NCBI GenBank assembly: GCA_034189755.1 | Contig: JAXIHJ010000104.1 | Coordinates: forward strand, 1 to 40,533 | Length of the DNA stretch: 40,533 bases | Reading direction: 5' to 3' | DNA from: Planctomycetota bacterium | GTDB lineage: Bacteria; Planctomycetota; Phycisphaerae; SM23-33 | Shown here: piece after piece, positions 7,526 to 28,949 of the stretch | Layout of the letters: every line of letters begins with the position of its first letter | Position numbering within the stretch: position 1 is the stretch's first letter | Notes under the pieces: generated by a model | Database searches by the model: none | Told to the model about the DNA's origin: nothing | Seen by the model: only the letters and a program-made list of their open reading frames with translations | Translations under genes and position numbers: made by a program

Positions 7526-8197
7526 CTAATCGTCCGGCGAGCCGACGGCTACATACGAGCCGATCAGGGGTGCGAAACCGATTCGCACCATGTCGATTAG
7601 CTTCAGGCCCGCAGCCCGGAAGGCATCCTCGATTTGGCGGCGGCCATAGAAGTAAACGTTGCAGCGCTTCGTTTTCAGCCACAGACGCCGCGCAGGGTTC
7701 AGCAGCATACATCGCCTCGGAAAGCTAGCAACGATGCGCCGGCGAGAAAGGCTGTTCATCTTCCGGAGCATCGCCTCGGGCTGATCCACGTAGTCCATCA
7801 ACCCGATTGCGACGACCGCATCGAACGACTCATCGGTTTCGAACGCCTCCGCCGAAGCGCATGTGAAGCGGCAGTTTTGTCCCTGCCCGGCCCGCTCGGC
7901 CAGGTCCGCAGCCAGGTGTACCATCTCGTCCGACAGGTCGATGCCCGTTACGTGTTGAACCCCGGCCTGGGCGAGTGCAACGGCGACGCGGCCGGACCCG
8001 CAGCCGATTTCAAGGGCGCTTTCGGCCTGCCCGACACCCCGCAGACATGCCTCGACGCGCTGGGCCAGCTCGCGCCGGCGAAACAGGACGTCCACAATGC
8101 GCTGGACGGGTTTGCGTTGTCGGCCTTTTTCATAGATGGCGTCGAACCGCGCCGCGTCGCGCGTAAAGTAGTCGCGAACCTGATGTTGGTTTTTCAT
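7526..8197 (-). CDS. Class I SAM-dependent methyltransferase
   Basis: Motif I is 'LEIGCGSGRVAVALA' and post-I is 'GIDLS'. The ATG at 8197 overlaps the upstream stop as ATGA (translational coupling). Confidence 0.75.
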   Translation of the reverse strand: MKNQHQVRDYFTRDAARFDAIYEKGRQRKPVQRIVDVLFRRRELAQRVEACLRGVGQAESALEIGCGSGRVAVALAQAGVQHVTGIDLSDEMVHLAADLAERAGQGQNCRFTCASAEAFETDESFDAVVAIGLMDYVDQPEAMLRKMNSLSRRRIVASFPRRCMLLNPARRLWLKTKRCNVYFYGRRQIEDAFRAAGLKLIDMVRIGFAPLIGSYVAVGSPDD

Positions 8198-9225
8198 GTA
8201 AGCGCTTCCTGGAACGTAGTCCACCGGCGCGTCCGGAGCAGGCGGTCGAACCGCTTCAACGCCCGGTGGCGATTATAAGTGCCAATCCACTTCATCAATC
8301 GGCCTTGCTCGGCGAGCATCGGATGTTTCGCTCCGAGGTCCCACAGATTGTACCGGGCATCGTCGAATTCCCAGGGATGAATGTAGATAACAGGCGGGCA
8401 GCCGTAACGCCGCTCGTACCGCCGCAGGAAATAGCGGTTCAGCCAGAGTGGAAACAGCCGCAGGTAGAATCCGCCGCCGATGAGTATGCGGAACTTGCCC
8501 AGCTTGTAGACAGGCAGCGGAAACTCGACCAGGCCGTTCTTCAGGCGGTGCGGCCCGAACGGCGCATCGGCGACGCCGCCGTAGAAAAAGTTCTTCAGCG
8601 GCGCTATGCTCGAATCGTAGACGAAACCCTCATCGGCCAGGACGTCGAACGCCCAGCCGGTCTCGCCGGACATCGAGAACGAAGGCGCTCGGTAGCCCAG
8701 CGGCCGAACGCCCGTAGCCGACATGATGCGGTTGCGGCTGCGGACAACGTCGCGGCGAAACTCCTCCGGCGTCATCTTGTGGACGCGTTTGTGCGACCAG
8801 CCGTGGCAGGCGATTTCGTGGCCTGCCTCCACAATTCGCCCCAGCAGCGGCTCGACGTTATCTATGATGCTCGCCAGGACAAAAAAGGTTGCTCGCACAC
8901 CGTGGGTCTCCAGCAGGTCCAGCAGATGCGGCAGCGTCTCGTGCGCCCGCTTTGGAATGTTCTGTTCGGCGACAAGCTCCTCGGCGTAGGGCACGTAGTT
9001 GTAGTACTCCTCCAGGTCGATGGAAAGGATGGCCGGCGAAGGCGGCAGGTCGAGCTTCTCAGCCACCATGTTACGATAAGCCGAAACTGTCTTAGGTTGC
9101 GTCACGGCCGATTCGTCCTGCTTGCAGTGTTCTGCCCCCGCGCAGCAGACGATACCGAAATCTGCGGACAAATGCGAGGGTCCCTTTGGCGTCGGGGGCA
9201 GAAAGTACTTGCCACCATCCACCAC
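8194..9225 (-). CDS. Polysaccharide deacetylase family protein (NodB domain plus DUF3473-like C-terminus, resembling the PEP-CTERM-locus subfamily)
   Basis: 'LSIDLEEYY', 'ATFFVLASI', 'GHEIACHGWSH', 'GYRAPSFS' and 'GGGFYLRLFP'. The real start may be the internal Met at 9069, because 9225 leaves only 36 nt to the divergent gene. Confidence 0.8.
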   Translation of the reverse strand: MVDGGKYFLPPTPKGPSHLSADFGIVCCAGAEHCKQDESAVTQPKTVSAYRNMVAEKLDLPPSPAILSIDLEEYYNYVPYAEELVAEQNIPKRAHETLPHLLDLLETHGVRATFFVLASIIDNVEPLLGRIVEAGHEIACHGWSHKRVHKMTPEEFRRDVVRSRNRIMSATGVRPLGYRAPSFSMSGETGWAFDVLADEGFVYDSSIAPLKNFFYGGVADAPFGPHRLKNGLVEFPLPVYKLGKFRILIGGGFYLRLFPLWLNRYFLRRYERRYGCPPVIYIHPWEFDDARYNLWDLGAKHPMLAEQGRLMKWIGTYNRHRALKRFDRLLRTRRWTTFQEALT

Positions 9226-9261
9226 TTGAGTCGATACTAATACCGTTTCACCGACTTAATT

Positions 9262-10179
9262 ATGGATCGGGCGGAGAATTTTGGCGTGGCAAGAATACCC
9301 CGGAAGTCATGGTTGATATGCCTGGTGGTTGTGGTGTCATTAGCGACGTGTCTCGCCGATGACGAGACTTCCATGCACGGTTCGCCCCCTCGCATCGAGG
9401 CCATTACCAGGCCCAGTGAGGACGTAACGCTTTCATTTGTCAGGCCGGGTCAAATTGCCAAGGTGTTTGTCAAGGAGGGCGATCCCGTCAAAGTCGGCCA
9501 GGTGCTTCTCCAGCAGGATGACGCCGTGGAGCGGGCCGAACTGGAGCAGCTTAAGCTTCAGGCGGAGAATCTCACCCGCGTTCAGGCGTCCGAGGCCCAA
9601 CTCAAACAGAAGAAGGTGGACCTCAAGAAACTGGAGTGGGCCGAGAAGCGGGGCGCCGCAACGGAGCTGGAAGTCGAGCACGCCCGCTTGGACGTGTTGA
9701 TTTCCGAGCTGACGCTGGAATTGACGCGATTTCAGCAGGATCAGGACCGGCGCAAATACATTCAGGCGAAACTCACGATTGACCGCATGTCCCTGAACAG
9801 CCCGATTGCAGGTGTGGTGGAGCAGATTGCCATCGAGCCGGGCGAAGCGGTGGATGCATGGGTGCAGGTAATTCGTGTTGTGAAGATTGATCCGTTATGG
9901 ATAGATGTTCCCGTTCCGCGGACCTTGGCCATGAAGCTGCGGCGTGGCGGTGCAGCGCGGGTCGAGTTAGGCCCGGCCGGCGCCGTGGTTGTGGGCAAGA
10001 TCATTCACATTGCCGCAGTGGCCGATGCGGCCAGTAATACACTGACCGTTCGTGTGGAGATGCCGAATCCCACACGCAGGCCGGGAGGAGAGCACGTTAA
10101 GATATACTTTCCGCGGCACGTAGCCGGCGGGAAAAGTCACGCGATTGCATCACCATCGGCCTCTGAAAAGAGCAAATAG
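9262..10179 (+). CDS. HlyD-family membrane fusion protein (periplasmic adaptor), N-terminally anchored
   Basis: N-terminal hydrophobic segment 'WLICLVVVVSLATC', a lipoyl-like 'GQIAKVFVKEGDPVKVGQVLLQQD', a coiled-coil hairpin and 'SPIAGVVEQIAIEPGE'. Confidence 0.75.
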   Translation: MDRAENFGVARIPRKSWLICLVVVVSLATCLADDETSMHGSPPRIEAITRPSEDVTLSFVRPGQIAKVFVKEGDPVKVGQVLLQQDDAVERAELEQLKLQAENLTRVQASEAQLKQKKVDLKKLEWAEKRGAATELEVEHARLDVLISELTLELTRFQQDQDRRKYIQAKLTIDRMSLNSPIAGVVEQIAIEPGEAVDAWVQVIRVVKIDPLWIDVPVPRTLAMKLRRGGAARVELGPAGAVVVGKIIHIAAVADAASNTLTVRVEMPNPTRRPGGEHVKIYFPRHVAGGKSHAIASPSASEKSK

Positions 10180-10203
10180 GCCCCAAAAGGACAAGGAGTC
10201 ATT

Positions 10204-10575
10204 ATGGCTGAGAAGAAGAAGCCTTCGACCGACGAAGGAACCAATGTGGAAGATCAGGCACGCGAGCAGACCGGGCAGCAGCAGGTCCGTCTCCGTATCG
10301 ATGAGCGGAACATGAGCAGCTGTTATGCCAATGCCTTTCGCACCAACGGCACGGCCGAGGAGGTCATGCTGGACTTTGGCGTTAATCTGGTCAATCCGGC
10401 ATCGCAGCAGCAGGATAAGCCGGAAATTATTTTCCAGGTCAATCAGCGCGTCATCTTGAACTATTACTCGGCCAAGCGGATGGCGATTACACTCAGCCAG
10501 TTGATTCGCCGTCATGAAGAAGCGTTCGGCGAGCTGGAGATGGACGTTAACAAACGCCGCAAGAGCGGCAAGTAA
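10204..10575 (+). CDS. DUF3467-like small protein
   Basis: aaggag SD. 'YANAFRTNGTAEEVMLDFG...QRVILNYYSAKRMAITLSQLIRRHEEAFGEL' matches the remembered DUF3467 pattern (YsN..i.hs..EF.lDF...R.il.p.hAKrl...L...i..yE..fGei). Confidence 0.6.
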   Translation: MAEKKKPSTDEGTNVEDQAREQTGQQQVRLRIDERNMSSCYANAFRTNGTAEEVMLDFGVNLVNPASQQQDKPEIIFQVNQRVILNYYSAKRMAITLSQLIRRHEEAFGELEMDVNKRRKSGK

Positions 10576-10608
10576 GTTCTACGCTACTCGAAACGGAAGC
10601 AGGCATCC

Positions 10609-12537
10609 ATGTCGACGAAGCCAACGCAGGTTTCTCGGCAGAGGCAGGGCGGCGAATCGCCCACAACAGGTGAGATTGTTGACCGCCTCAGCCGGTTTGA
10701 CGGCCCGCCGGAGCAGTTTCTGGCCACGCTGCTGGCGGTGCAGTGTTATATCTCCGCCGCAGAGGGCGGAACTATTTTGCGGGTCAGCCCCGAGGGGCAG
10801 GTGGAAGTGCTGGCTGTTTACCCCGCCTTGCCCGAGGCGGCGACTGCGCCGGTGTGGCTGGCGCAATCGGTCGAATCGGCCGGGCAGGTTATCCAGGCGG
10901 GCCAGACGAACATCAAGCCGCTCCACAGCGAAGAATCACTCTACGGCGAGCCGGCTCATCATCATCTCGTGATGGTGCCGTTGCGTGGCGGCAGCGGCAT
11001 CCGCGGCCTGGCTGTCTTTATGATTGAAACGCGAGATCAGACCGTTCTTGCCGCCAGCCGGGAACGACTGGAACTTTCGACCAGCCTGCTAAGCCTCTAT
11101 GAGATGCGCCTGACGCTGCAACGCAGGAAGATAGACCTCGAACGGCTGCGAGTGGCGTTGGAAACCCTGTCGGCGGTCAACGAGCAGGATCGCTTCACCG
11201 GTGCGGGCATGGCCCTGTGCAACGAGCTGGCCAGCCGGTTCCAGTGCGACCGGCTAAGCCTCGGCATGTTGAAGGGGCGATACGTCCAGCTAAAGGCGCT
11301 CAGTCATACCGAGAAGTTCAGCCGCAAAATGAAGCTCGTCCAGGACATCGAGGCCGCAATGGAAGAATGTCTCGACCAGGACCTTGAAATCCTTCATCCC
11401 TCGGCTGACGAGGCCCCGTACGTCGCTCGGGCCACCAAAACTCTTGCCACACGCCACGGCCCGGCGACGGTTGTTTCGTTGCCGCTTCGCAAGGGTGGTG
11501 AGCCGATAGGCGTGCTGACGGCGGAGCGCCCGGTGGACCGCCCGTTCAGCCTCGATGAGATCGAGACGCTGCGACTGACCGCGGACCTGAGCACGGCCTG
11601 GCTGGCGAACCTTTTTGAACACGACCGGTGGTTCGGCGCCAGGTTGGCCGGTGCAGCCGGCAAGGGCCTTTCCGTCCTGCTGGGTTCCAAGCACACGTGG
11701 GCCAAGGTCGCAGCCGTTGCCGTCATCGTAGTAGTGTCGTTCCTGGTGTTTGCCAGGGGCGATTACAAGGCCGAGGCGACGTTTGTTGTCCAGGCGGTCC
11801 AGCGGCGGGTCGTTACGGCGCCTTTCGACGGCTATCTCGCCGATGTTTCGGTTGAACCCGGCGAGGTGGTCAAGGCAGGCCAGGAACTGGCCAGGCTGAG
11901 CACGAAGGACCTGCAATTGGAGCTGGACAGCCTAAAGGCCGAACGCGAAGTGTATCTCAAACAGGCTGATACCGCCATGGCCGCCGCCATACTTGATGAG
12001 CAAAAGAGGGCCGAGGGGCAGATCGCCAGGGCACAGGCGGCAAAAGTAGCCGCGCAGATCGAACTGCTGGAGTACCGCAAGCAGCAGGCAACGCTAATGG
12101 CGGCTATCGACGGACGAATTATCGGCGGAGACCTGTCCCGCCAGATCGACACCAAGATTGCCACCGGCGACATGCTGTTCGAAGTGGCGCCGATCGAAAA
12201 CCTTCGTGCGGAGCTGTCCATGCCGGAGGACCAGATCGCCGACGTGGTGGCCGCCATGGACGAGGCCCGAAAGCACGGGCGGGATATCCGCGGCGAACTG
12301 GCCACAGCCGGTGAGCCAGGCCAGCGAATCGAGTTCATCGTCGAGCGGATCAATCCCGTAGCCGAGGTGGTGGACCAGCAGAATGTCTTCAAGGTGCGTG
12401 TCCGCCTGGCGGGGCGGACCGGGCGTATGCTGCCGGGCATGGAAGGCAAGGCGAAGATTCACATCGGCAGGGCCAGTTACGCCTGGCTGTGGACTCGCCG
12501 ACTGGTCAACTGGTTGCGGATGAAGCTCTGGCTCTGA
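10609..12537 (+). CDS. Two GAF-like domains, one TM helix and a HlyD-type membrane fusion domain
   Basis: Two cytoplasmic GAF-like regions ('LVMVPLRGGSGIRGLAVFM', 'VSLPLRKGGEPIGVLTAER'), TM 'VAAVAVIVVVSFLVFA', then 'VVTAPFDGYLADVSVEPGEVVKAGQELARL' plus a long coiled coil. Confidence 0.7.
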   Translation: MSTKPTQVSRQRQGGESPTTGEIVDRLSRFDGPPEQFLATLLAVQCYISAAEGGTILRVSPEGQVEVLAVYPALPEAATAPVWLAQSVESAGQVIQAGQTNIKPLHSEESLYGEPAHHHLVMVPLRGGSGIRGLAVFMIETRDQTVLAASRERLELSTSLLSLYEMRLTLQRRKIDLERLRVALETLSAVNEQDRFTGAGMALCNELASRFQCDRLSLGMLKGRYVQLKALSHTEKFSRKMKLVQDIEAAMEECLDQDLEILHPSADEAPYVARATKTLATRHGPATVVSLPLRKGGEPIGVLTAERPVDRPFSLDEIETLRLTADLSTAWLANLFEHDRWFGARLAGAAGKGLSVLLGSKHTWAKVAAVAVIVVVSFLVFARGDYKAEATFVVQAVQRRVVTAPFDGYLADVSVEPGEVVKAGQELARLSTKDLQLELDSLKAEREVYLKQADTAMAAAILDEQKRAEGQIARAQAAKVAAQIELLEYRKQQATLMAAIDGRIIGGDLSRQIDTKIATGDMLFEVAPIENLRAELSMPEDQIADVVAAMDEARKHGRDIRGELATAGEPGQRIEFIVERINPVAEVVDQQNVFKVRVRLAGRTGRMLPGMEGKAKIHIGRASYAWLWTRRLVNWLRMKLWL

Positions 12538-12552
12538 TATAGAAGGTGTTTC

Positions 12553-14724
12553 ATGCCAGTGGACCGGCCCACATTCAGCGAATCATGGTACCGCGTTGTG
12601 GACTTGCGGCCGCGGCTGCGGTCGACGGTTCAGGTGCACCGCCAGCACTTTCGCGGGCACATGTGGCACGTTCTGCAAGACCCTTCGTCAAATCAATTCT
12701 TCCGCCTGAACGATGCGGCTTACTACTTCGTAGCCATGCTGGACGGCCGGAGGACCGTCGGCGAGGTTTGGCGAATCTGCAATGAGCAGCTCGGCGACAG
12801 CGCGCCGACGCAGGGCGAGGCTATCCAGTTGCTGGGCCAGCTCTATAGCTCAAACCTGCTCCAGGCGGAGCTGCCCCCCGACGCCGAAGGCCTGTTTCAC
12901 CGGTATCGCAAGCGTGTAACCCGGGAGGTGCAGGGTTATCTGATGAATCTGTTGTTCATACGGGTTCCGCTGATTGATCCGGACAACTTTCTGAACCGCT
13001 GGGTGGGGGTATTCGGCAAGTTGTTTACGAAAGTTAGCCTGCTGTTGTGGGTGGTGCTGATGGGGGTGGGTTTGTATTTTGTAATCGGCCGGGCCGGCGA
13101 GCTGTTTGATGGGGCAGCGGGCATTCTCGACCGGGAGAATCTGCCGCTTTTGTACCTGAGCTTCGTGATTATCAAGATTTTCCATGAGTTCGGGCACGCA
13201 TTTGCCTGTAAGGCGTTTGGCCGGGCCAGCGGCACCGGGGGCGAGGTCCACGTAATGGGCGTAATGTTCCTGGTCTTCACGCCCCTGCCGTATGTGGACG
13301 CCTCCAGCGCGTGGGCGTTTCGCCGGAAGTGGCACCGCGCCGTGGTGGGCGCAGCCGGCATGTTCGTGGAGTTGGCCGTCGCAGCCGTCGCGGCAATTAT
13401 CTGGGCAAACACCGCCCCCGGAACGCTGCGGGCCGTCTGCTACAACGTGATGTTCATCGCCTCGGTCTCATCGCTGATCTTCAACGGCAACCCTCTGCTT
13501 CGCTTTGACGGCTACTACATACTTTCGGACGTGCTGGAGATTCCGAATCTCTCTCAGCGGTCCAAGCAGTACATCTATTACCTCGTCAAGCGCTACGTCT
13601 ACGGAGTGCGCAGGTCTCATAATCCGGCCAACACCGGCGGCGAGAAGAGATGGTTCGTTTTTTACGGCATCGCCTCGACACTGTATCGCGTGTTCGTCTG
13701 TATTCGGATATTGCTGTTTATTGCGGACAAGTTGTTCATTGTGGGGGCTGTACTGGCTGTAGCAGCCGTCGTGGCCTGGGTGTTCGTGCCGCTGGGCAAG
13801 TTCCTGCATTATCTGTTCACCAGCGGGGAGTTGATGCGGGTTCGGGTACGAGCGGTGGGCTCGACACTCGGGGTGCTGTTGGCAATTGTAATTGGTGTCG
13901 GGCTGATTCCCGCGCCCGACCGCGGGCGGATCGAAGGCGTCGTCGAGCCGGTCCGTCTGGCAATCATGCATGCCCAGAGCGACGGCTTTATTCAGGACAA
14001 CTTCCTGCCATCCGGCAGCAGTGTCAGGCCCGACCGCGACATTCTCGTCCGCGCCGAGAACCCCCAGCTCCAGGCCATGCTGAAACAGGTGCGAGCTGAA
14101 CGGGACATCTACCTGACCCAGCGCCGGCTGGCGATGGTGCACCAGCAGGCCGCCGTAGGAGCCTTGACCGAAAAGATCAAGGCCCTGGACAATCGCATCT
14201 CGCGGACACGGCGCATGGTGGACGACCTGTCGCTTAGGCCTCGTATCGAGGGGCAGTGGATTGCCCCGGAAATCGACCGGACCGTGGGATTATACATCCG
14301 TCGCGGTGAAAGGATCGGCATCGTGGCCAGTCCGGACGACGTTTTTGTTCGTGCGATTGCCGACCAGGAAGTCTCTATAAACGAGATTGATTTCAGCCGC
14401 GTGGAGATACGGGTCAAGGGTCGGCCTGACCTCCAATGCACCGGAAGAATCCTGAACATTCTGCCGGTAGGCCAGCAGCGCCTGCCGTCGGCTGCACTGG
14501 GCTACGCCGCGGGCGGATCGATCCAGACCGACCCTCAGGACAGGCAGGGCACCAGGGCCGCTGAGCGAGTCTTCGAGGTCCGCATCGCTCCGGACGAAGA
14601 CCGCGATATCCGACTGCTGAGCGGCCAGCGGGTCATCGTGCGGTTTGAGACGCCTCGCAAACCGCTGGCGCTTCAGTGGTTGCGATCGCTCCGGCAACTG
14701 ATCCTCAGGAGGTTCCACATCTGA
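12553..14724 (+). CDS. Fusion protein: PqqD-like domain, M50 (site-2 protease) membrane metalloprotease and a HlyD-like periplasmic domain
   Basis: PqqD-like 'FFRLNDAAYYFVAMLDGRRTVGEVW...AIQLLGQLYSSNLL'. HEFGH lies at 13183-13197 in a TM segment. The second S2P motif is 'NGNPLLRFDGYY'. The C-terminal half has a coiled-coil/beta-barrel adaptor-like sequence. Confidence 0.75.
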   Translation: MPVDRPTFSESWYRVVDLRPRLRSTVQVHRQHFRGHMWHVLQDPSSNQFFRLNDAAYYFVAMLDGRRTVGEVWRICNEQLGDSAPTQGEAIQLLGQLYSSNLLQAELPPDAEGLFHRYRKRVTREVQGYLMNLLFIRVPLIDPDNFLNRWVGVFGKLFTKVSLLLWVVLMGVGLYFVIGRAGELFDGAAGILDRENLPLLYLSFVIIKIFHEFGHAFACKAFGRASGTGGEVHVMGVMFLVFTPLPYVDASSAWAFRRKWHRAVVGAAGMFVELAVAAVAAIIWANTAPGTLRAVCYNVMFIASVSSLIFNGNPLLRFDGYYILSDVLEIPNLSQRSKQYIYYLVKRYVYGVRRSHNPANTGGEKRWFVFYGIASTLYRVFVCIRILLFIADKLFIVGAVLAVAAVVAWVFVPLGKFLHYLFTSGELMRVRVRAVGSTLGVLLAIVIGVGLIPAPDRGRIEGVVEPVRLAIMHAQSDGFIQDNFLPSGSSVRPDRDILVRAENPQLQAMLKQVRAERDIYLTQRRLAMVHQQAAVGALTEKIKALDNRISRTRRMVDDLSLRPRIEGQWIAPEIDRTVGLYIRRGERIGIVASPDDVFVRAIADQEVSINEIDFSRVEIRVKGRPDLQCTGRILNILPVGQQRLPSAALGYAAGGSIQTDPQDRQGTRAAERVFEVRIAPDEDRDIRLLSGQRVIVRFETPRKPLALQWLRSLRQLILRRFHI

Positions 14725-14725
14725 C

Positions 14726-16714
14726 GTGACGGACCTGCCGAGCACAACCTGGCGGATGCTGGCCCAGCGGACGGCGGGTACGGAACTACCTAAGGGCCTC
14801 GATGCCGTATGGGACGGCACCGTGGGGTTTGCCGGGCGGCTTCTGCCGAGGCGGAATCGCTTCCTGCGCCGGGCGGAGCAAATCGTCGCCATGGAGGGGC
14901 AGTTCACCAAGTTGTCGGACGCCCGGCTGCGCGAAGTTGCCGCTGATCTGCGGGCCATATTTCGTTGCGGGCGTGAGACCCAGGTGGAGTTGGACCGTGC
15001 CTTTGCGGTCGTTCGGGAAGTAGCCTGGCGTGAACTTGGCGAAAGGCCGTTTCCGGTGCAGATGGCCGGCGCGCTGGCGATCGAGGCCGGCTGCATCACG
15101 GAGATGGCCACCGGCGAGGGCAAAACCCTGACGGCTACCATGCCTGCCGCGGTGGCGGGCTGGCGAGGCCGGGGCTGCCACGTCATTACCGTCAACGATT
15201 ACCTCGCCAAGCGAGATGCGGAATGGATGAGCAAGGTATATGGCTTTTGCGGGCTGACCGTAGCGCACGTTGCTCAGGGCATGCCGCCGCCGCAGCGCCG
15301 GGAGGCCTACCGGGCGGATATTACTTATGGCACCAATAAGGAGGTAACGGCCGACTTCCTCCGCGACAGGCTGGCGCTGGGCCGGTTGCAGGGATTACCG
15401 GCCGCACTGCTGGCGAAGATCACCGGCGGTTCCGGCAGCGGCACCGACCGCATCGTACAGCGCGGGTTGCAATACGCGATTGTTGACGAGGCCGACTCGG
15501 TCCTGGTGGACGAGGCGGTTACGCCGCTGATTATTTCCGGCCAGGCCCCGAACGCCGAGCAGGTCGAGGCCTTTCAGCAGGCCGCCAGGCTGGCCGGCGA
15601 ACTCAAGCCGCAGCGCCATTACCGCGTGAACCATCGCTACCACGAGGTTGACCTGACCTCGGCCGGAAAGGAATACCTGGCTGAGTTGGCCGCGGAGATG
15701 GGCGGAATATGGGCTGGTGCAAGGCGCCGGGAGGAACTTGTCGTTCAGGCCCTGACAGCCAGGCATTTCTACATGTTGGGAAAGCAGTATGTTGTGGACG
15801 ACGGCAAGGTGGTGATTGTCGATGAATTCACCGGCCGGCTGATGCCCGACAGGGAATGGCGCGACGGGCTGCACCAGGCCGTCGCCGCCAAGGAAGAACT
15901 GGAAATCGAGCTGCCGAAGGATACCTACGCCCGCGTGAGCTTTCAGCGGTTCTTCAGAATGTACCGCAAGCTTGCGGGCATGACCGGCACGGCCACCGAA
16001 GGCCAGGGAGAGTTCTGGCAGATTTACCACCGTCCTACGGTGGTGATTCCCACAAATCGCTCCTGCATTCGTAAGCACTATCCGGACAAGGTCTTCGCCA
16101 CCGCCGAGGCCAAGTGGCGAGCGATCGTGGCCGAGATTAGCCGCTTTCACCAGCAGGGCCGGCCGATCCTGATTGGTACGCGCAGCGTCCGTGCCAGCGA
16201 GCATTTAAGCCGGCTGCTTACCGACGAGAAACTCGAACACCAGGTGCTAAACGCAGTTCGCCACGCCGCCGAGGCACAGATAGTCGCCGGTGCCGGCCAG
16301 CGAGGCAGAATAACGGTGGCGACGAACATGGCCGGACGCGGCACGGACATCAAGCTGGGCCGGGGCGTGGCCAAGTTAGGCGGGTTGCACGTAATCGCCA
16401 CGGAGCGGCACGAAGCCGGGCGCATCGACCGCCAGCTTTTCGGCCGGTCCGCACGCCAGGGCGACCCCGGCAGCGCACAGGCCATAGTGAGCCTGGAAGA
16501 TGAACTGGTTCTCCGCCACGCGCCCCATCTGGCGGGGCTGCTCCGCAAGCGGCTTGGGGGGCGAGATGGCGAAATCTCCTCACCGGTCAGCCGGAAGGTG
16601 TTTGATATTGCCCAACGCCGGGCCGAGCGGCTTGCGCTGCGGCAACGAAAGGCCGTCTTGAGGACCGATGACTGGTTGGACGAATACCTCGGATTCGCCG
16701 GCAGTGAGCGGTAA
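14726..16714 (+). CDS. SecA-like DEAD-motor ATPase paralog, C-terminally truncated (662 aa)
   Basis: GTG start 1 nt after the upstream stop. Walker A 'MATGEGKTLTATMPA', Walker B 'IVDEADSVLVDEAVTPLIISG', PPXD 'YVVDDGKVVIVDEFTGR', and NBD2 'LAGMTGTA', 'ATNMAGRGTDIKLG', 'GGLHVIATERHEAGRIDRQLFGRSARQGDPGS'. It ends about 90 aa after this motif. Confidence 0.85.
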   Translation: MTDLPSTTWRMLAQRTAGTELPKGLDAVWDGTVGFAGRLLPRRNRFLRRAEQIVAMEGQFTKLSDARLREVAADLRAIFRCGRETQVELDRAFAVVREVAWRELGERPFPVQMAGALAIEAGCITEMATGEGKTLTATMPAAVAGWRGRGCHVITVNDYLAKRDAEWMSKVYGFCGLTVAHVAQGMPPPQRREAYRADITYGTNKEVTADFLRDRLALGRLQGLPAALLAKITGGSGSGTDRIVQRGLQYAIVDEADSVLVDEAVTPLIISGQAPNAEQVEAFQQAARLAGELKPQRHYRVNHRYHEVDLTSAGKEYLAELAAEMGGIWAGARRREELVVQALTARHFYMLGKQYVVDDGKVVIVDEFTGRLMPDREWRDGLHQAVAAKEELEIELPKDTYARVSFQRFFRMYRKLAGMTGTATEGQGEFWQIYHRPTVVIPTNRSCIRKHYPDKVFATAEAKWRAIVAEISRFHQQGRPILIGTRSVRASEHLSRLLTDEKLEHQVLNAVRHAAEAQIVAGAGQRGRITVATNMAGRGTDIKLGRGVAKLGGLHVIATERHEAGRIDRQLFGRSARQGDPGSAQAIVSLEDELVLRHAPHLAGLLRKRLGGRDGEISSPVSRKVFDIAQRRAERLALRQRKAVLRTDDWLDEYLGFAGSER

Positions 16715-16936
16715 CACCGTAGCCGGCTTGCCCGGAAGTTGGCGAACCGGAAATACGAAAAACGCTTGACTATGGTTTGGTGGCCGGATACGTTGCAAAG
16801 TGGCGATAATACCCTGGTAAGGCCGACGTGCCGACGTGCCGATGAGCCTAAACCAGGCTGGAGTATATGTGATATTGCTTAAGTGAACCTTTGCGGAGTG
16901 GCTCAGAGCTTTGCCGTGAAGGGAAGGAGTGCCTAG

Positions 16937-19900
16937 ATGTCTATTCCTGCCGAGAGTCCCCCCGAGAACCTCTTGCCCCAGTTCGAAAGCCTCGAACAAA
17001 GACTGCTGCTGACAACGCTGATGGGCGGAGAGTTTTTCATCTACCTAAACAGCCAGGGTGAAGCGGTCCGCGTCGATTTGGACGTCGGGGCGACGGAAGA
17101 CTCCGAGGACGCCATCGTGGAGTTGTTCACCTACGACGACAATTGGGGCGGCGTGCACGACCTGGTCGGCATTCCCGGTGACGATACCGCCGGCCTGCGG
17201 ATTAACGACCAGCAGCAATGGGGCGACGGTGTCGAAGACATCGTCGAATACGACGTCGAGAATGGCACGTGGTCGTGGATCAACTACGAAAAGGACGAGT
17301 TCGGCAATGACAGCATTCGCGGCGCCGAGACGGAGATCTTCTCGATCTACATAGCGATGTGCACACCCGATACGGTGCTGACCATATCGACGCTGACCTC
17401 TTCGGACATTCCCGAAAGTGCAGCCGGCTGGCCCGCCTGGTATAACGATATCAATACCTGGGATTCGACGACCCTGCCGCTGCTGGCCGTTATCGCACAT
17501 GATCCGGTGAATGTCTTTGCGCCGGCCGGCTCCGGTGGCGTGATCGTTGGGACGCAGCGTTCGCCCGAGGCCGGTGTCGACGGCGACAAGCTGCGGCACA
17601 TTGCCGTGGCCAACGCCGACCCGGAAACCGGCCTGTCCAACATGGGCTGGTTCCCCGGCGGAAACCTGGCGCCCGGCGTTTCGGTATTCGGCGAACCGTT
17701 CCAGATGATCAACCTGCCGGTCGGCTCCGACGTTCATTCCATCGCATCCGACTCCGCCGGCAATATGTTCGTGGTGGACCTCAGCGCCTTTCAGGGTGTC
17801 ATCGTCAACGACGATCCCGGCGGGGAGGGATTTCTGGGCGAGGACGTCAGCTCGCTTGCGTCCGATTCGGCCGGGACGTTCTATGCGGTGGACAATGCAC
17901 TGACGCCCCTTATCAACAGCCCGACCAATAGTAACATCGGGGCCAACATAACGGGCATCACGGCCGGCGATGCAGGGCTGTTCTACGCCGTTGATGAGGA
18001 GACCCACCATTTGCTTTCATGGTCGGTGGCCGACGGGCTTACCGACATCGGCGAACTGATCGACGCCAACCAGAGCCAGTACCGCTACGAAGGTGTTTGC
18101 GGGCTTGATTACAATTCGAGCAGCAGCCTGATGTATGCGATCGGGTTTGTAGTGGACACCGACCCGGCTGTTGCGCCGGATGCGCCCGATCCGAGCGGCC
18201 CGTTCCTGATTACCATTGATGTAACCAATGCACAGGTTACCAGCAGGATGCTGATAAACGACGGCAACGGCACGTTTACCGCGATGGCTTTCGATCCCGC
18301 CGGAACCTGCTTCGCCGTCAACGGGGCGACCAACGAGCTGGTTACCATAGACCCGGCCGACGGCGCTATTACGGTCGTGGGCACGTTGCTGGACGGTGCG
18401 ACTTCCGTTACGGGTGTCGTTGGCATCGACTTCCTCGGCCAGGACATGTACGCCGTTACCGGCGACCACTTGTATCGAGTGAGCCCCGCAACCGCCGCGT
18501 GCACGGACCGCGGCGCAGTGGCGCTACCTGCCGACATGGGCTCGCTGGCTTATGACCCGACCCGGCCCGGCTCGCTTTACACGGCTGTCGATATCGGCAC
18601 GAACGAGTATCGCTTCTGTCGCATCCCGCTGGGCGCTTCGCTGGTCTGGGCCGACGTTGACGGTGTGTCGACGCTTATTGACGTGCTGGTTGATTCTACG
18701 GAAGACACGTGGGTCTGGCAGAACGTCTACGCGCTGGATTACAACAACGGTGACGGCCTGCTGTACGGGGTCGGCACGGCCGTCGATCTGGACACCCAGG
18801 ACGCCGGCGTTCCACCGGCGGGCCGGCGGCTGATTACAATCGACCCGGTGACCGGCCTGGTTACCGACGTCGGCGCGCTGACAGGTGCGGCCGACGTGCA
18901 AAGCCTCGTCTTCGATGGCGGCGGCACGCTCTACGGCCTGGACGCCACCACCGACGAGCTGTACGACATCAACCCGGCTACGGGCGCCGGTGTGTTGGCG
19001 GCTACAGTGGATGTTTCCAATCTGGAGGGTATCGAGTTTGTCAACATCGGCGCAAACGAGGTCCTGTACGGCGTTACGGCCGACGAGCTGTACGTCTTTG
19101 ACCTCAACCTTGGTGCGGGCACTGCCACCGGAACGCTTCTGGGCGACACCGGCCAGACTACGCTGAGTTCGCTGGCATTCGACGGCAGTGGCAGCCAGGA
19201 CAACATACTGTGGTCCACCGCCAGTGACGGCACGAACTTTTACCTGACGCGCGTAGACCTGTCCAGCGTGCTGGTTGCACTGAACGGCTGGAATCCCGTT
19301 ACGCGGCAGGCGCTGCTGTTCGACGCGGCTGAGCCTGCATACGCCTATGTCGGCATTCACGCACTGGAATTCGGGCCGGGGGACGTGCTCTACGGTGTCG
19401 GCACTATCGTCAACCTCGACCCCGGCAATGTAGCTGACCCGGCCTCGTTTGGCCCGTACCTGATTACCATTGATACGACCACAGGCCTGGTTACCCAGGT
19501 GGTTCCGGGTACGCCGCTTGTAACGGACCTGTCCTCGCTGGCATACGACGCCACCGCCACGTGGTACGGCGTTGTGCCCGACGTTGCGGGCGACCAACTG
19601 GTGACGGTGAACATGGCCACCTCGGCGACGACTCTGGTCGGCGTGCTCACCGCCGCCGCTGCGCTGACTGGCGTAACGGGCCTGGACTTTGAAGACGGTT
19701 CGCTCTATGCGGTAACGGACGATTCACTTTACGAAGTGGATGCGGCCACGGCTGTGTGCACGCTGTCCGGCCTGACGCCGTTTACCGGCCTGAGCAGCCT
19801 GACCGGCGACGAGACGGATACGCAGCAACTGTGGTCCACGGCGCTGTTCGGCGACGAGTATTACCTCGTCAGCCTGGCGACCGACGCCGAAGCGGGGATC

Positions 19901-22900
19901 CAGGACATCGGGCGCGTAATCATGGCCGGCACACTTGCCGGCGCGTTCACCACCGACGGCAACGTTGAAGTAATCGAGATGGGGTTCCTGTTCGGCAACG
20001 TGCTGGTCGGGCACAATCTGGATACACTCATTGCCCGCGTCGGCGGTGGGGCGGTGCCGGTTCCGGCGCCGACAAATTTCGTAACCCCCGACGAAAGCAG
20101 GATATGGGCCGGCGGCGTCATCACCGGCGTTTACAGCCGCTCTGAAACGCTGTATTCGGCAATCGAGGCCGACAACGACCTGACAATTGCGGATCCCGAC
20201 ACGCTGATCATGGAACACGAGGTCCGCGTCGCCGCTGACGCCCACGACGCCGCCTGGCTGGCCGGCGACCTGGTGGACCACTACAACGACTCGATGGAAA
20301 CAGCCCAGTTCCTGAATCACCCGTCGGGCGACTTCACACTGTTCGGTTCTTTTCCGTCGGATCCGTACGATTCCCTTGAGGACTGGTACGCACTGCCACT
20401 GATGGCCGGCCAGACCATCGTCATGGACGGCATGGTTATTAGTTGCGCCGCCTACCTGTACGACTGGGACGGCAACTGGATGGACAGCTTCGGCTTTGAG
20501 ACCATCGAGGACGAGGGCCTCGCCTCGATTGGTCAACAGATCAAGCCAATGACTTTCACCGCCCCGTCAGCGGGTGTCTACTACCTGATGTTGTATGATT
20601 TAGAACCGCGAGGCGGCGCCTATTTACTGAACTTTACCAACGGCCCAGCGGCGGCGCTGGGTGGCGTCAGTGTCGTCGGCGACTATTACGGTATGTTTAC
20701 GGGCACCGGCTCGGCCGCGGACAAGGGAGCCAACATCGCCGCCAAGTGGGGCGGCGACCTAGGCGGCGTCGTGATTACAGGCAGCAGCTACTACACGGTC
20801 GCCTACGCCGCCTACGGCGGAAACCTGGTAGCCTTCCAGGCCGGCGAAATTGGGACGCTCATTGACGGGACCTACACCACCAACACGATTATCTCCGACA
20901 GCAACATCGGGCGGGTAGCCTCAACGTCGGGCTTCCTCGACGCCAACATCCTCGCAGGCAGCAATTTCTACAACCCCAATGCGTACATCCAGAACATCTA
21001 CGCCGCCACCGACTACATTTTCGCAAACGCCATCATGGCCACGGGCAGCATCGGCGTAATCGAGATCGAAAACGATTTGCAGTATGGCGTACTTATCTCA
21101 GTCAACAGCAACGATACGAATTATACCCCGGGGATGGGGTCGCGGCTGGACCTGCTTGACATCGGCGGCGATTATCACTGCTACGGTGGGGCGATGCTTT
21201 CCCATGGTCCCGGCGGCGACATTGGGTTTGTCTACGTCGGCGGGACTATACTCGTCGATTACGGCGATTGGATCGGTGCGGTTACGGAGGAGCTTTATGA
21301 GAATGGCGAGACCTCCATTCTCAACGACGACGGCGGCGGTCGGACGACCGTTTTGCCCGTCGAAACCACTTTGCTGGATGAAAACGGCGCCCCGGTGCTG
21401 GATGAAAACGGCGACGAAGTTACCTACACGCCGACCTATTCCTTTTGCTACATACCCGTCGACGACGTGATGGGCGGCGTGGGCGGCGTGGTCGCCAATT
21501 TCCGGGTCAACGGCTCGGCCGTGTTTAATACCACCGGTGTGGTCCAGGTTTCCTCGCTGGACATTTCCGATTGGAGGCCGGGCGGCGGCGGCGACCCCTA
21601 TACCAGCCTGACCTTCGCAGGCGGCGAGACAAACATCTACTATCTCCACGACCACCACACCCATCCGGACTATGCGGCCCGGACGCTCGACATCCATATA
21701 GATGGGAATCTGGTTTCAGCGAACCTCGGCCAGGGCGGATGGGGCGCATCATCAAGCGCGGTGTCCAGAGATACGACCGTGGCAAACCCGTATCCGGTGG
21801 ATCAGCTCGATATTGAAAAATTGACGGTTACGGGCGATCTCGGCGCCCAGACGGGCACCACGGGCGCCTGGCTGCACGGCTGGGACGATGCAGAGGTCAT
21901 CCCGGATGTGGACGACGGCTCGGATGCGGATACCGTCGCCCAATACTATCAGGAGGCCCAATACGGCTGGTTCCACGGCAAGCACAACGGCGTGCAGATA
22001 TGGGGCAATCTGGAGAATCTGAGGGTCAATGGTTCTCTGGGTGACATGCGCGTCAAGAACAACCCACGTATCGATGCCGCATTGGCGTTTACCGGCCGAA
22101 TCGGCACCGTTCGCGTCAATGCGGACAACTACACAGCCGCCGGAGATTGGGACGGTATCTGTGGGATTCTCTGGGCCAGGAGGCGGATCGACGAGGCTTA
22201 CGTCGGCGACGGCCTGGCCGACGACGGCGGGGCGGATGTGGCGCGGGCGGCCATTATGTCCGGCTACAGTATCGGCAGGGTCGAGGTCAACGGGCCTTAC
22301 TTCGTGGTGGACGGCCAGGCCTACCATGAGCTGAACGGCTCGATCATCGGCTTCAGCAATGACATCGGCACAACCTTTGATGAGGCGGGCAACCCGGTTG
22401 TAACGACCTATCACGGCGTCGGCCAGGTTATAGGCCTCAACGGCGCGCGGATGACGGCCAACGTCGTCGGCATGAACCTGCTAACGTTCCGCTGCTACGG
22501 TGCGCCCTACGCCGCCGCCGCCGGCATCGGCACGGTAAGCTTCTCCGGCGTGGGCGCTGAGATCGAAGGCTCGGAAATTACCGGCGATTACGTTCAGAAG
22601 GTCTACACCAGCATTAACTCCAATGGCATCAGCAACTCGCACATTTCCGGCCATGACCCGGTATCGGGCGAATATGCTGTCGGCGAGGTAATCGGCGGCG
22701 GGCCTGGCATGAACCGCGTTTTCGTCAGCGTTACCGGCAGCGACATCGGTACTGTCAAGGGCCTCGGCGCCAATGCCGACATCCTTAGCAGCGTATTCGT
22801 TTCCACCGCCGGCATGCATTACATCGGGGCCAAGGACCTGTACGAAAACGGCATCCACATGCCCGGCACCGTCGGAACGATGAACGCCACGCACGACATG

Positions 22901-25900
22901 ATCTCGAATACGGTCATGGTCGGTGCGGTCGACCAGATTAAGGTCAGCAATGATTTCGAGCTTAACAGCTTTACCGTCGCCGGCAAGATCGGCCCGATGG
23001 ACATTGGCGGGGCCTTTATCGACTCCTATCTGTCTCTACAGGGTCCGTCGATTGCCAACCTGAAGTCGCTGGTGGTCAACGGCGATATTTCGGGCGAGAT
23101 TGTCTGTGCCGGCAAGATCGGGCAGATTATTTCCCGCAACGGCGGCATCAGCGCCGATATAAGCACAATCGTCGCCGAATGGGACGGCGACATTAACTTG
23201 ATCCAGACGGCAGAGGGTTTTACCGGCAAGCTGTACGTGTCCGGTTCGATGGGCCGGTTCATCTCAGGCCTTTCGCTGGGCGAGAGTCCCGCCCAAACGG
23301 GCGAGACCCAAACGTTCGACATCCTTGGCGACCTGAACTACCTGAAGGTCGGCAGCAGGTCGGTGTCGGCCCATCTGTACGCCGGCATCAACGTCGGCGG
23401 CGACGTCGGCACGATGGATATCAGCGGCACGCTCTACGCCAATGTCATGATCAACGGCAGCATGAAATCGCTGATCGTCGGGGGGCAGATGGGCGGCCTG
23501 TTGAACTTCACAGAGAACTGGACTGGCGCCGATGGGAACGCGTGGCCCGGCGTATGGACTTTCAATGGCGATATCGACCAGTTAGCCAGTCAGGACATTC
23601 AGAGCAATCGCGGCCGAGTGGCGGGCGATGTCGCGGCGGCGGGGACGGTGATGGCATACACCAGGCATCATGCCAGGAGCGTCGACCAGTCGGTCCTGTT
23701 TAACATCAGCGCCGACGGTATGGGCTTTGGCTTGATCGCCCGCCGGTCGGACACCGCTGAGGATACGTACTATCTCGCACGGGTGGTCAGCGGCGGCGCA
23801 GTGGGCGATTCCCTGCGAATCTACAAGGTCGTCGGCGGCGTGGAGACCGAACTGGCCGACACCGGGCTTTTGTACGACGCAGCCGGCACCGATTTCATGC
23901 TGCGGTTCGCCTGCACGAAGCAAGGTTCCAATACGCTGTTGCAGGTGAAGATGTGGGATGCGTCCGTGGCGGAACCGGCGGCATGGTCGGCGGAGGTTAC
24001 CGACAATGAAGCCGCTCTTCAGGGCGTCCGTGGCCGGTTCGGCCTGTACTACGGCCTGTCGGACGTGATCGAGGCGCTGATCGACAACTATACCGCCGAT
24101 TTCTCCCGTGGCCGTCTGACCGTCATGGGCAAGCTCAATTCGATGAAGTTTCCGACGACCGGCGACCTGTTCGCCGACTTGGCTATCGGCGGGTCAATCA
24201 AGAGGCTCAACCTCACCGGCGGCAGCATACTCGGCGACCTCACCAGCCGATATGGTGCGATCGAGGGAATCAACCTCAACGGCGGTTCCGTCATTGGAAA
24301 TGTTACGGCCGTTTCGATAGGCAACATCTCTATCCGCAACGGCAACGTAATGGGCGACGTTACCGCTACCGACGGCAATATCAAGTCGTTGAGCGTTACC
24401 GGCGGCAATCTGGATGCTGAGGTTACGGCCCGGAACGGCCGAATCCAGCGTCTCTCCGTCAACACCGGTGATATCCTGCCTGGCCATACCATCGAAGCCG
24501 AGGCCGGCTTTGGGACCGTTTCCATTCGCAACGGCGACCTGCTCAGCGACCTTATCTCCGGCCGGAACATCAAGTCGCTGACCATCCGAGGCAGCGATAT
24601 AGGCTCTGCGCTTAATCCCGTCATGATCAGCGCCGAAACCGGCATCGACAGGGTTCAGACGGACGGGGCCGTGGTAAACTCCGTCATACGGTCGGGCAGC
24701 AAAATCGGCCAACTCAACGTGAACAGCGTGCAAGATTCGATTATTTCAGCCGGCTGGCATATTGGCAGCGCCAGGATAGGGACCAACGTAACCGGCTCGC
24801 ACATTCTGGCAGGCTACGACGTCGGGCCTGACGGGGCGGTCGGTGGCGGCGACGACGTGGCGCACTCCGGCGACTTTAAGAGCCTGGACGTCGGCGGCAA
24901 CTTCAACACTTCGGTCGCCGCAGCCGGCATCGACCCAGGCGCCAGCGACGACTTTACAAACCTTGCCGACAACACCGACAACAACGGCGTCAGCAGCATT
25001 TTACGGGCAAACGTCCGGGGCGCCGCAGTCGGTAGCTTCATCCAGGCCGACACGTATATCGACCCGAACGCACCGGCCGGCGCCGTGGTGCCCGTCAAGA
25101 ACGACCCTGTCGTGGCTCCAGGCGGCAGTGTGGACTTCGGCCCGGAGACAGCCAACAACACGCTGACCATAGGCAACCTGACATTGACGCTGACGGGGGC
25201 CGGACTGGGCAGCTATCACGCCGCGACCAACACGCTGTACCTGAACCGCACGACCACCAGAAGCAATTTGAGGCTCGACAACACCGGTGCGAATATCGAC
25301 ATCACCGTTGTCGGCGCCGAAGATGCCGAGCTAAGCGGCTTGCAGACCAGTGGGGCCGTAACCCTGGCCGACACGACCGTCCACGGCGCCATCAAGAGAC
25401 TTACCGCCGCCAACATTGCTAACGGAGCCGTGTGGAACCTGTATGGCGGCATCGGGTCGGCTTCGCTGGGCGGCATGACCAACGTAAACGCCACCACCGG
25501 CGAGCTTGGCACGTGGAGGATGGACGCGTTGACCGGCGGGTTCCTGACTGCCGACGCGATCAAGGGTTTCTTTGCAGCCGGCTCGGTTACCGGCAACCTA
25601 ACGGCGCTGCTGGGCAACGCCAGGATTGACATACGCGGCGGCGACCTGAACGGCGACGTGACGATTCTCGGCACGGCAACCGGCTTGGCGGTCAGCGGCG
25701 CCGTTACCGGCGTTGTGAACGTTACCAACGGCGACTTGCAGACGTTCCGGGCCGGTTCACTGTCCGGCAGGGTCGAGGCCGCCCTTGGCCTGAGCAGAAC
25801 GGTAACCATCACGGGTGCCTTTAGCGGCAGCTATCGAACTGGAATGGGCATCGGCCGATTTGCCTCTGACACATTCTCAGGCCTGCTGAGCACCAGCGGG

Positions 25901-28530: not shown

Positions 28531-28535
28531 CATCC

Positions 28536-28949
28536 ATGATTGCCGCCAAGATGCTCAAGGACATCACGATTCACCACCAGGTCCTGCCGCTGACTGCAGC
28601 TGTGCTGATCGCCCTGGTTACCATTGAGCTGGTGCGAAGACGCAAGCTCCGCGAGGAATACGCGATGTTGTGGATCGCCGCCTCGGCGGTGCTGCTGGTG
28701 TTTGCGATATTCCCCCGACTGCTGTGGTACGTCAGCGGCGCCATCGGGCTGGTTTATCATACGACCATGATTATCCTGTGTTTCAGCTTCCTGTCTCTGG
28801 TCGTTATTCACCTGTCCGTCATCATCAGCCGCAACTCCGAGGATACCCGGCAGATGGCCCAGCGAATTGCAATGCTGGAACGGGAGCTTGAAGAACTTCG
28901 CGGCGGACCGGTCCGGGAGCCGGCCTCCGAACATGAGGACCGGCGCTGA
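28536..28949 (+). CDS. DUF2304-like small membrane protein
   Basis: aggag SD. It has three to four TM helices and 'LVRRRKLREEYAMLWI', and sits in the usual position immediately after a GtrB-like GT2. Confidence 0.65.
   Translation: MIAAKMLKDITIHHQVLPLTAAVLIALVTIELVRRRKLREEYAMLWIAASAVLLVFAIFPRLLWYVSGAIGLVYHTTMIILCFSFLSLVVIHLSVIISRNSEDTRQMAQRIAMLERELEELRGGPVREPASEHEDRR

Follow-up and report, generated by a model that had tools for sequence, protein, structure and literature searches.

A short SecA paralog of a Planctomycetota bacterium as the candidate motor of a type-I-like exporter for LEPR-XLL giant proteins

Introduction

SecA is the textbook motor bound to one channel, SecYEG. The DNA analysed here, a stretch of 40,533 nucleotides from a Planctomycetota bacterium (GenBank assembly GCA_034189755.1, contig JAXIHJ010000104.1, positions 1 to 40,533 of the forward strand, which is the entire contig; hereafter the window), carries an open reading frame (ORF) for a short SecA paralog that keeps the clamp for the polypeptide and lacks everything that canonical SecA uses to engage SecY and SecB. 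This raises the question of what such a motor would push and which membrane partner it would use. Judging from its domains, its gene neighbourhood and its relatives, the short SecA is probably the ATPase of a SecYEG-independent, type-I-like exporter for giant proteins with an N-terminal LEPR-XLL motif.

The family and its gene neighbourhood were published in 2015, which was missed by the first-pass annotation, made from the sequence of the window alone. Kamneva, Poudel and Ward (PLoS One, PMC4452313) described 'secondary SecA_DEAD domain proteins' that had lost SecA_SW and were encoded in a conserved locus with GAF-HlyD, Peptidase_M50-like, HlyD/Biotin_lipoyl and sometimes OEP (outer-membrane efflux protein) genes; all of the phyla reported with the module were diderm, Planctomycetes among them. 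The proposed role was that of a stand-in for the ATP-binding cassette (ABC) ATPase of a type-I-like system, and neither experiments nor a substrate were reported. The window protein agrees with this family in having SecA_DEAD without SecA_SW, in belonging to a clade separate from canonical SecA, and in having GAF-HlyD, M50-like and HlyD/Biotin_lipoyl genes directly upstream on the same strand (9262-14724). It is thus a further member of a published family and is not new as a kind of protein. The 2015 paper does not contain the DUF3467 gene, the PqqD-like domain, the conserved HExxH...NPLLRFDG site or the association with LEPR-XLL giants, all of which are described below.

Domain content and truncation point of the short SecA

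The gene in question is the following.

14726 to 16714, + strand: short SecA paralog with NBD1, PPXD, NBD2 and the long scaffold helix only; putative soluble ATPase motor

The ORF begins with GTG, encodes 662 amino acids (aa) and ends with TAA at 16712-16714; an in-frame Met11 gives the 652-aa form that is reported by many gene callers. Pfam searches of the protein found SecA_DEAD (E 2e-102, aa 44-431), SecA_PP_bind, that is, PPXD (PF01043; E 5e-26, aa 279-386) and P-loop_SecA, that is, NBD2 (E 3e-58), and found neither SecA_SW (PF07516) nor a SEC-C domain. Among the canonical SecAs retrieved for comparison, PF07516 was present in all and PF02810 in most. The best structure match was B. subtilis SecA (E 4e-147), in which residues 43-652 of the query were aligned with residues 16/19-604/607 of proteins that are 780-840 aa long. 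By extrapolation from this alignment, the last residue of the short SecA corresponds approximately to B. subtilis residue 614, which we take to lie in the last turns of the long scaffold helix, shortly before the wing domain. The domain boundaries used for placing the truncation were reportedly those of Hunt et al. 2002. The short SecA therefore has no wing domain, none of the remaining scaffold that includes the two-helix finger/IRA1, and no C-terminal linker or zinc finger. The first-pass annotation had claimed this loss and suggested a search with a SecA_SW hidden Markov model; the Pfam and structure comparisons bear the claim out. Its placement of the end near E. coli residue 650 was about right; by our count on the E. 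coli sequence it lies nearer 660.

The motor itself was described as intact, and this agreed both with the Pfam domains and with the motif residues, since the catalytic residues were invariant among 21 homologs (K133 of GKT, D254-D257 of DEAD, TGTA 420-423, RGTD 538-541 and R574/R577). In comparison with canonical SecA of E. coli and B. subtilis (PDB 1M6N, 3JV2, 2FSF), to which the short SecA is 42-46% identical, NBD1, PPXD, NBD2 and the scaffold helix are common, whereas the wing, the remaining scaffold including the two-helix finger/IRA1, and the zinc-binding tail that binds SecB and the ribosome have no counterpart. The canonical NCBIfam models scored below their cutoffs (652.7 vs 814 for NF009538 and 638.1 vs 800 for TIGR00963). 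The short SecA resembles the engineered E. coli N68 fragment, which has de-repressed ATPase activity and is unable to translocate.

Three elements distinguish the short SecA from its canonical counterparts in the opposite direction, namely a different N-terminus and the two features below.

15383 to 15451, + strand: family-specific NBD1 insertion of approximately 20 aa (aa ~220-242, ...LQGLPAALLAKITGGSGSGTD), directly 5' of the DEAD motif
16667 to 16708, + strand: novel conserved C-terminal tail DDWLDEYLGFAGSE with invariant columns, in place of the end of the canonical scaffold helix

The N-terminal extension, estimated at approximately 30 aa in the first-pass annotation, measured approximately 24-27 aa against B. 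subtilis and approximately 37 aa against E. coli and was conserved (L21, P22, G24, D26). The insertion was a gap opposite B. subtilis SecA; in a 224-sequence alignment it was present in the short family and absent from canonical SecAs, and its residues L224, G239, T240 and D241 were invariant among close relatives, as were residues D648-W650-L651-D652...L655-G656-F657-A658-G659-E661 of the tail. Of the 148 clade members, 68 had the pattern [LM][AGS]F[AST]G within their last 14 aa and 89 matched a relaxed version of it, compared with none of the 76 canonical SecAs. The tail is a candidate docking motif for a membrane partner.

Long ORFs also run antisense here (for example, 14290-15195 and 15395-16204 on the minus strand); they were set aside as a consequence of the high G+C content, approximately 61-64% in this region and approximately 60% across the window.

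Homologs with the same end point and the phylogeny of the family

Homologs clustered at 90% identity were almost all 650-680 aa long and 71-79% identical (best 120 of 8000 scored). Among the best 150 clusters at 50% identity, almost all full-length entries were 620-700 aa long and were aligned to the last residues of the query; the approximately 16 exceptions comprised fragments, a few extended forms and four SecAs of canonical length. In the window, the stop is followed by 222 non-coding bases and then by a different gene without SecA homology. Because hundreds of homologs of 640-700 aa share a common conserved C-terminal tail, the stop is genuine.

A phylogeny of short SecAs, as the first-pass annotation had advised, was obtained by neighbor joining from 526 motor columns, with the sequences of Kamneva et al. 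2015 and SecA2 proteins left out. The short SecAs formed their own clade: all 30 bootstraps (30/30) split 145 short and three longer sequences from the 76 canonical SecAs. Internally, the short family was more divergent than canonical SecA is across bacteria. Longer proteins inside or beside the clade were P0379 (1240 aa), P0254 (761 aa), P0256 (721 aa) and P0418 (797 aa); P0256 kept the LGFAG motif with extra residues after it, and P0379 had a basic tail. They could represent fusions or wrongly called genes; alternatively, not every member of the clade may be truncated. Planctomycetota also have canonical SecAs, 875-885 aa long (L014; P0458), and the short SecAs found on plasmids are presumably additional to a chromosomal secA.

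The five-gene module

The short secA is the last of five tightly packed genes on the + strand (9262-16714), so that the whole module lies in the window. The other four are as follows.

9262 to 10179, + strand: small periplasmic adaptor (membrane-fusion protein), 305 aa; Pfam HlyD_D23, HlyD_3, Biotin_lipoyl_2
10204 to 10575, + strand: soluble DUF3467 protein, 123 aa; Pfam PF11950, E 1.4e-17
10609 to 12537, + strand: adaptor with a GAF domain, a transmembrane helix and an HlyD domain (GAF-HlyD), 642 aa; Pfam GAF, GAF_2, HlyD_3, HlyD_D23
12553 to 14724, + strand: polytopic inner-membrane PqqD/M50-like protein, 723 aa; Pfam PqqD E 1.1e-5, Peptidase_M50 weak

It had been suggested in the first-pass annotation that the short SecA does not dock on SecYEG in the canonical way and may use another membrane partner. 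This suggestion fits the gene context, because the short secA starts at 14726, one base after the stop at 14724 of a gene for a polytopic PqqD/M50/HlyD protein, and lies in an adaptor module that is often followed by TolC-type genes.

The M50-like protein combines a PqqD-like N-terminal domain (aa 39-103) with a core of at least six transmembrane segments (aa 151-452), in which HEFGH (aa 211-215) and NGNPLLRFDG (aa 311-320) were found. Its C-terminal region is an HlyD-like periplasmic domain according to the 2015 description and the layout of transmembrane segments; Pfam gave no HlyD match there. HExxH was kept in all 17 module loci and NxNPLL[RK][FY]DG in 15 of the 17, and this conservation argues for proteolysis as part of the mechanism. 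The protein is a candidate cargo receptor, leader peptidase and membrane platform.

GAF-HlyD, which corresponds to the 'GAF' cluster of Kamneva et al. 2015 (PMC4452313), has by hydropathy a cytoplasmic sensor-like GAF domain, one transmembrane helix (aa 364-382) and a periplasmic membrane-fusion domain. Of the 16 other module loci compared, 15 had it, at 27-62% identity; the exception was L009, which is truncated on the upstream side. The small adaptor scored 112.9 bits with NCBIfam RND_mfp, above the cutoff of 94.9, carries an N-terminal signal or lipobox-like segment (...SLATC; hydrophobic aa 12-30) and has homologs in 13 of these 16 loci.

The DUF3467 gene occupied the same position in L001, L004 and L005 (tblastn) and in the P0403 locus, and in five alphaproteobacterial plasmids it followed directly after a giant gene or open frame. 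Aligned relatives were 68-81% identical. The protein had no transmembrane segment and no PDB match by sequence or profile, and its structure model (predicted local distance difference test, pLDDT, 54) was too poor for a fold search. The idea of a SecB-like chaperone found no support: an hhalign comparison with E. coli SecB gave a probability of 0.2%, and no PDB match was found. DUF3467 is a recurrent part of the module and a candidate cargo chaperone or adaptor. In two Planctomycetaceae metagenome-assembled genomes (L006 and L008), no DUF3467 gene was present between the small adaptor and GAF-HlyD; therefore, its adjacency is not universal. The GAF-HlyD proteins of these two genomes also contained a stretch of approximately 140 aa that could not be aligned to the window's protein.

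The order adaptor-(DUF3467)-GAF/HlyD-PqqD/M50/HlyD-short SecA was kept in Planctomycetota relatives and, with small permutations, in distant metagenomic lineages, in a gammaproteobacterium (Oceanospirillaceae) and in six alphaproteobacterial plasmids. Carriers include Mesorhizobium ciceri R30 (plasmid NZ_CP088148), Methylosinus sp. C49 (pMSC49a) and Methylobacterium extorquens AM1 (META1p2399-2402). TolC/OEP genes adjoined the module in five loci (L001, L085, L086, L087 and Methylosinus). The module contained no ABC gene, neither here nor in those relatives that were examined for gene content. In the L001 locus, from a peat-metagenome Phycisphaerae (12099-21306), the short secA was followed by two OEP (TolC-like) genes and then by a complete CusB/ACR_tran resistance-nodulation-division pump, which suggests that outer-membrane channels are shared or co-regulated. 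With PADLOC, no match to a defence system was obtained for any of the five proteins. In the interval 8900-17200, predicted promoters and terminators were no commoner than in shuffled sequence, and no terminator-like site was found between the short secA and the giant gene that follows it.

The giant neighbour and the LEPR-XLL association

The gene downstream of the short secA, which the first-pass annotation of the short SecA had not considered, is the likely cargo gene on the evidence of its N-terminus and of more distant loci.

16937 to 27637, + strand: giant protein, 3566 aa, Gly/Asp/Thr-rich and very acidic; probable cargo
16982 to 17017, + strand: LEPR-XLL-like motif FESLEQRLLLTT at aa 16-27 of the giant; putative tag for export or recognition

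The window giant contains 421 D+E against 128 K+R residues and 0.5% Cys, and only weak domain matches were obtained for it. Giant type-I substrates are likewise acidic and Cys-poor. No N-terminal hydrophobic signal peptide was found in this protein, the sole giant checked for one.

The LEPR-XLL motif is represented in NCBIfam by NF012209 ('LEPR-8K'; 24 aa, cutoff 17 bits). Six other module-adjacent giants scored 23.4-34.1 bits with this model. The Q-variant of the motif that is seen in the window giant also heads the ORF immediately downstream of short secA in L113 (LESLEQRLMLTT), and LEPR-type ORFs were found at three further Planctomycetota-type loci (L112, L113 and L117). Every readable giant N-terminus conformed to h-[ED]-x-h-E-[PEQ]-R-h-L-L-[ST/N]-[A/S]-D at residues ~15-65. 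The giants beside the module were 3628 aa long in L085 and 4926 and approximately 9200-9400 aa long in the P0403 organism; on four plasmids, annotated giants of 8.8-12.7 thousand aa immediately preceded DUF3467, and two further plasmids had open frames of more than 2547 and more than 4238 aa that continued beyond the fetched stretch. Module-adjacent LEPR-XLL giants (3.5-12.7 thousand aa, acidic) thus occur in Planctomycetota and in Alpha- and Gammaproteobacteria.

Whole-protein scans of genome and metagenome contigs were dominated by canonical SecAs (the short-family loci numbered 5 and 13, respectively), and the canonical-secA loci were reused as controls. Of the 30 module loci, at least 10 had a LEPR-XLL ORF within 10 kb, whereas the 142 canonical-secA loci (2.19 Mb) had none; this difference corresponds to a Fisher p of approximately 5e-8 (computed with 9 of 30) for controls from other taxa and for same-lineage loci that are not fully independent. 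The link to giants surfaced only through the more distant loci and the N-terminal motif.

Loci L088-L095 and the P0403 locus (ENA metagenomes) belong to a single uncultured organism, in which giants flank the module on both sides (4926 aa upstream and approximately 9200-9400 aa downstream); one exporter may serve several giant cargos. Near the C-terminus of the window giant (27377-27514, aa 3481-3526), weak matches to Pfam Peptidase_C39_2 (E 0.002) and NCBIfam Mplas_Cys_pep (E 0.0037) were found, with a GCAPTAAG-type motif upstream of these papain-like/C39-like cysteine peptidase matches. The peptidase-like C-terminus may be an enzymatic head on the giant.

The names given by the Prokaryotic Genome Annotation Pipeline (PGAP) to these proteins were inconsistent on plasmids NZ_AP022333.1, NZ_CP049813.1, NZ_CP088148.1, NZ_CP085155.1 and NZ_CP049043.1 (loci L096-L100). 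Short SecAs appeared there as 'DEAD/DEAH box helicase', 'prepilin peptidase', 'hypothetical protein' or 'translocase', the M50-like protein as 'PqqD family peptide modification chaperone', and the LEPR-XLL name was carried by only one of the four giants above the NF012209 cutoff. Over the six plasmids as a set, 'M50 family metallopeptidase' is also used for M50-like homologs.

The proposed exporter

The truncated motor, the membrane and adaptor genes and the giant neighbours together make it fairly probable that the short SecA powers export of LEPR-XLL giants independently of SecYEG. In such an exporter, the polytopic PqqD/M50/HlyD protein would be the inner-membrane platform, and GAF-HlyD and the small adaptor would form a periplasmic duct to a TolC-type outer-membrane channel, which in the organism of the window would be encoded elsewhere. 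The DUF3467 protein would be a cytoplasmic accessory factor that may hold or present the cargo. The exporter's cargo would be giant surface proteins, acidic and in the unfolded state, that bear a LEPR-XLL motif at the N-terminus, in this case the 3566-aa protein (16937-27637). The PqqD-like domain would bind the LEPR-XLL strand in the way that recognition elements of ribosomally synthesized and post-translationally modified peptides (RiPPs) bind leader peptides. The short SecA would dock on the membrane complex from the cytoplasmic side, with its conserved N- and C-terminal motifs as possible contacts, clamp the chain and push the unfolded giant, N-terminus first, by ATP hydrolysis. The HExxH site would remove the leader during or after passage, and the adaptors and TolC would lead the chain out of the cell. 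Activity may be gated by the GAF domain, as an N68-like SecA without IRA1 would otherwise be a de-repressed ATPase. The domain content and truncation point of the short SecA, the obligate linkage of its gene to those of the PqqD/M50/HlyD protein and two further adaptors, the conservation of the motifs, and the enrichment of LEPR-XLL giants beside the module were observed; the ATP-driven export, the identity of the channel, and the recognition and cleavage of the leader are what we infer from them.

The proposed exporter would share its tripartite logic, with membrane-fusion adaptors and a TolC-type duct, with the type I systems for giant adhesins (LapA/LapBCE, SiiE and MpIBP type). Their cargo is giant, acidic, Cys-poor, repetitive, devoid of a Sec signal and encoded beside the exporter, and the candidate cargo of the module is alike. 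The HlyD-type adaptor of type I systems is represented here by two proteins with clear adaptor domains, and the module has up to three different adaptor-type proteins. In contrast to type I systems, a SecA-derived motor and an M50-like membrane protein are present instead of an ABC transporter, and the tag is N-terminal (LEPR-XLL), whereas the type I signal is C-terminal. Some LEPR-XLL giants elsewhere are reported to have C-terminal RTX domains as well (PMC10868602), so a classical type I secretion role is possible for some of them. A stronger claim, that the module and a TolC-type channel make up a distinct secretion system crossing both membranes, with a SecA-derived motor in place of the ABC protein, a leader of the LEPR-XLL type that is read by PqqD and cleaved by the protease, and cargo of up to approximately 12,700 aa, may be put forward tentatively, its chances being somewhat short of even.

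Several observations weigh against the proposed export of giants by the module. The window giant scored only 13.7 bits (E 0.037, profile positions 2-12) with NF012209, below the cutoff. Approximately two thirds of the module loci, including most of the closest relatives, had no LEPR-XLL gene in their 10-kb flanks; tblastn found no homolog of the window giant in ten related loci, so that the adjacency is not kept among the closest relatives. The enrichment is subject to the origin and partial dependence of the loci mentioned above. No channel-forming component has been identified, and to our knowledge M50 proteases do not serve as polypeptide conduits. The two-helix finger is the pushing element of SecA in many models; as it is missing, the mechanism of the motor would have to differ. 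No TolC-type gene was found among the window ORFs scanned, several long ORFs having been left unscanned. The AlphaFold2 model of the short SecA, computed from a 21-sequence alignment, was too poor for docking (mean pLDDT 62; predicted template modelling score, pTM, 0.45). Literature searches on the locus, on SecA-like motors and on LEPR-XLL returned only the 2015 paper and two passing mentions, with no experimental function. A preprint on giant proteins of Omnitrophota describes other architectures.

A widespread paralog that keeps the clamp, is without the parts that bind SecY and SecB, and is linked to adaptor, protease and TolC genes points to a second use of SecA in diderms. If the link to LEPR-XLL is true, it would explain the exit route of surface proteins of 3,000-13,000 aa that have no signal peptides, provide a testable substrate for the ten-year-old 'secondary SecA_DEAD' locus, and offer a natural experiment on whether SecA-driven translocation needs the two-helix finger. 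If the module is indeed a distinct system, it would be a secretion route for the LEPR-XLL class across Planctomycetota and Proteobacteria, in which SecA pushes polypeptides without SecY and without that finger. Annotation could also be improved, as RefSeq now labels these proteins 'SecA', 'DEAD/DEAH box helicase', 'translocase' or 'prepilin peptidase'. Through the link to a cargo and the additional components, a locus that has long been an orphan becomes accessible to direct tests.

Alternative functions of the module

The alternative that survives best is that the module is a RiPP-like peptide processing and efflux pump, or a GAF-controlled signalling device based on intramembrane proteolysis, and that giants are adjacent because of shared regulation or mobile islands. 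The M50-like protein indeed shares a PqqD-like N-terminus and an intramembrane HExxH core with RiPP leader peptidases: it matched the daptide protease model NF041824 (daptide_HExxH) with E 5.6e-49 over aa 20-410 and the YydH/LiaK model NF058609 with E 7.7e-8, the scores being below the cutoffs in both cases (167 vs 300 and 32 vs 225). The GAF domain suggests sensing, and an adjacent giant is absent from most module loci. However, the M50-like protein differs from these peptidases in its added periplasmic HlyD-like domain, and no RiPP precursor or tailoring genes lie nearby; neither precursor-peptide nor modification-enzyme genes recurred in the neighbourhoods examined in detail. The only recurrent extra neighbour was the LEPR-XLL giant, in the same orientation and often abutting DUF3467, and its enrichment over the control loci is difficult to reconcile with this explanation. 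Moreover, a SecA motor with PPXD is built for long unfolded polypeptides. This explanation is considered unlikely.

It is also conceivable that the short SecA is a SecA2-like accessory motor that feeds a subset of proteins to the housekeeping SecYEG, as SecA2 of mycobacteria and Listeria does, and that its neighbours have a later, periplasmic role. In Gram-positive bacteria and mycobacteria, SecA2 is likewise a second SecA paralog with a small substrate set, the wing domain of mycobacterial SecA2 is also reduced, and the motor and PPXD of the short SecA are 42-46% identical to canonical SecA. Known SecA2 proteins, however, are 760-810 aa long, retain the scaffold and the two-helix finger, and have SecYEG or SecY2 as their partner; the short SecA stops before both elements. 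It scored below the cutoffs of all four SecA2 models used (TIGR03714, TIGR04221, TIGR04397 and NF012136; 515 vs 930, 461 vs 725, 581 vs 1085 and 451 vs 1100), with matches ending at model positions ~586-602 of 762-776. Its gene is linked to HlyD and M50 genes and starts one base after the stop of the gene for a different polytopic membrane protein, and a Sec-type signal peptide is missing from the window's candidate cargo. Although the clade was placed beside actinobacterial SecA2 by Kamneva et al. (PMC4452313), a role of this kind is very unlikely.

A third explanation is that the short SecA acts as an unfoldase for the M50 protease in degradation or membrane extraction, that is, in quality control and not in export. 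A conserved protease site beside a polypeptide-clamping ATPase would be analogous to the logic of AAA+ proteases; however, three periplasmic adaptor domains and recurrent TolC genes would have no role in degradation, and the explanation is highly improbable. Finally, the view that a normal secA has here decayed to a truncated pseudogene, or only looks short because of a frameshift or assembly error (an error at the stop had been allowed for in the first-pass annotation), can practically be dismissed, since nothing but the short length favours it and it is opposed by the common end point and conserved tail of hundreds of independent homologs, by their high conservation (71-79% identity across the clusters listed) and by the lack of SecA homology downstream.

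Genes flanking the module and the giant

Immediately upstream of the module, a polysaccharide deacetylase gene with DUF3473 (8194-9225, - strand) is transcribed divergently, and the 36-bp gap between them leaves little room for a separate promoter region. A glycosylation-type cluster (27790-32699) lies directly after the giant gene.

27790 to 28530: GT2 glycosyltransferase
28867 to 30591: PMT_2/ArnT-like membrane glycosyltransferase
30870 to 31652, - strand: GT2 glycosyltransferase
31737 to 32699, - strand: NAD-dependent epimerase

This cluster could modify the envelope or the giant protein.

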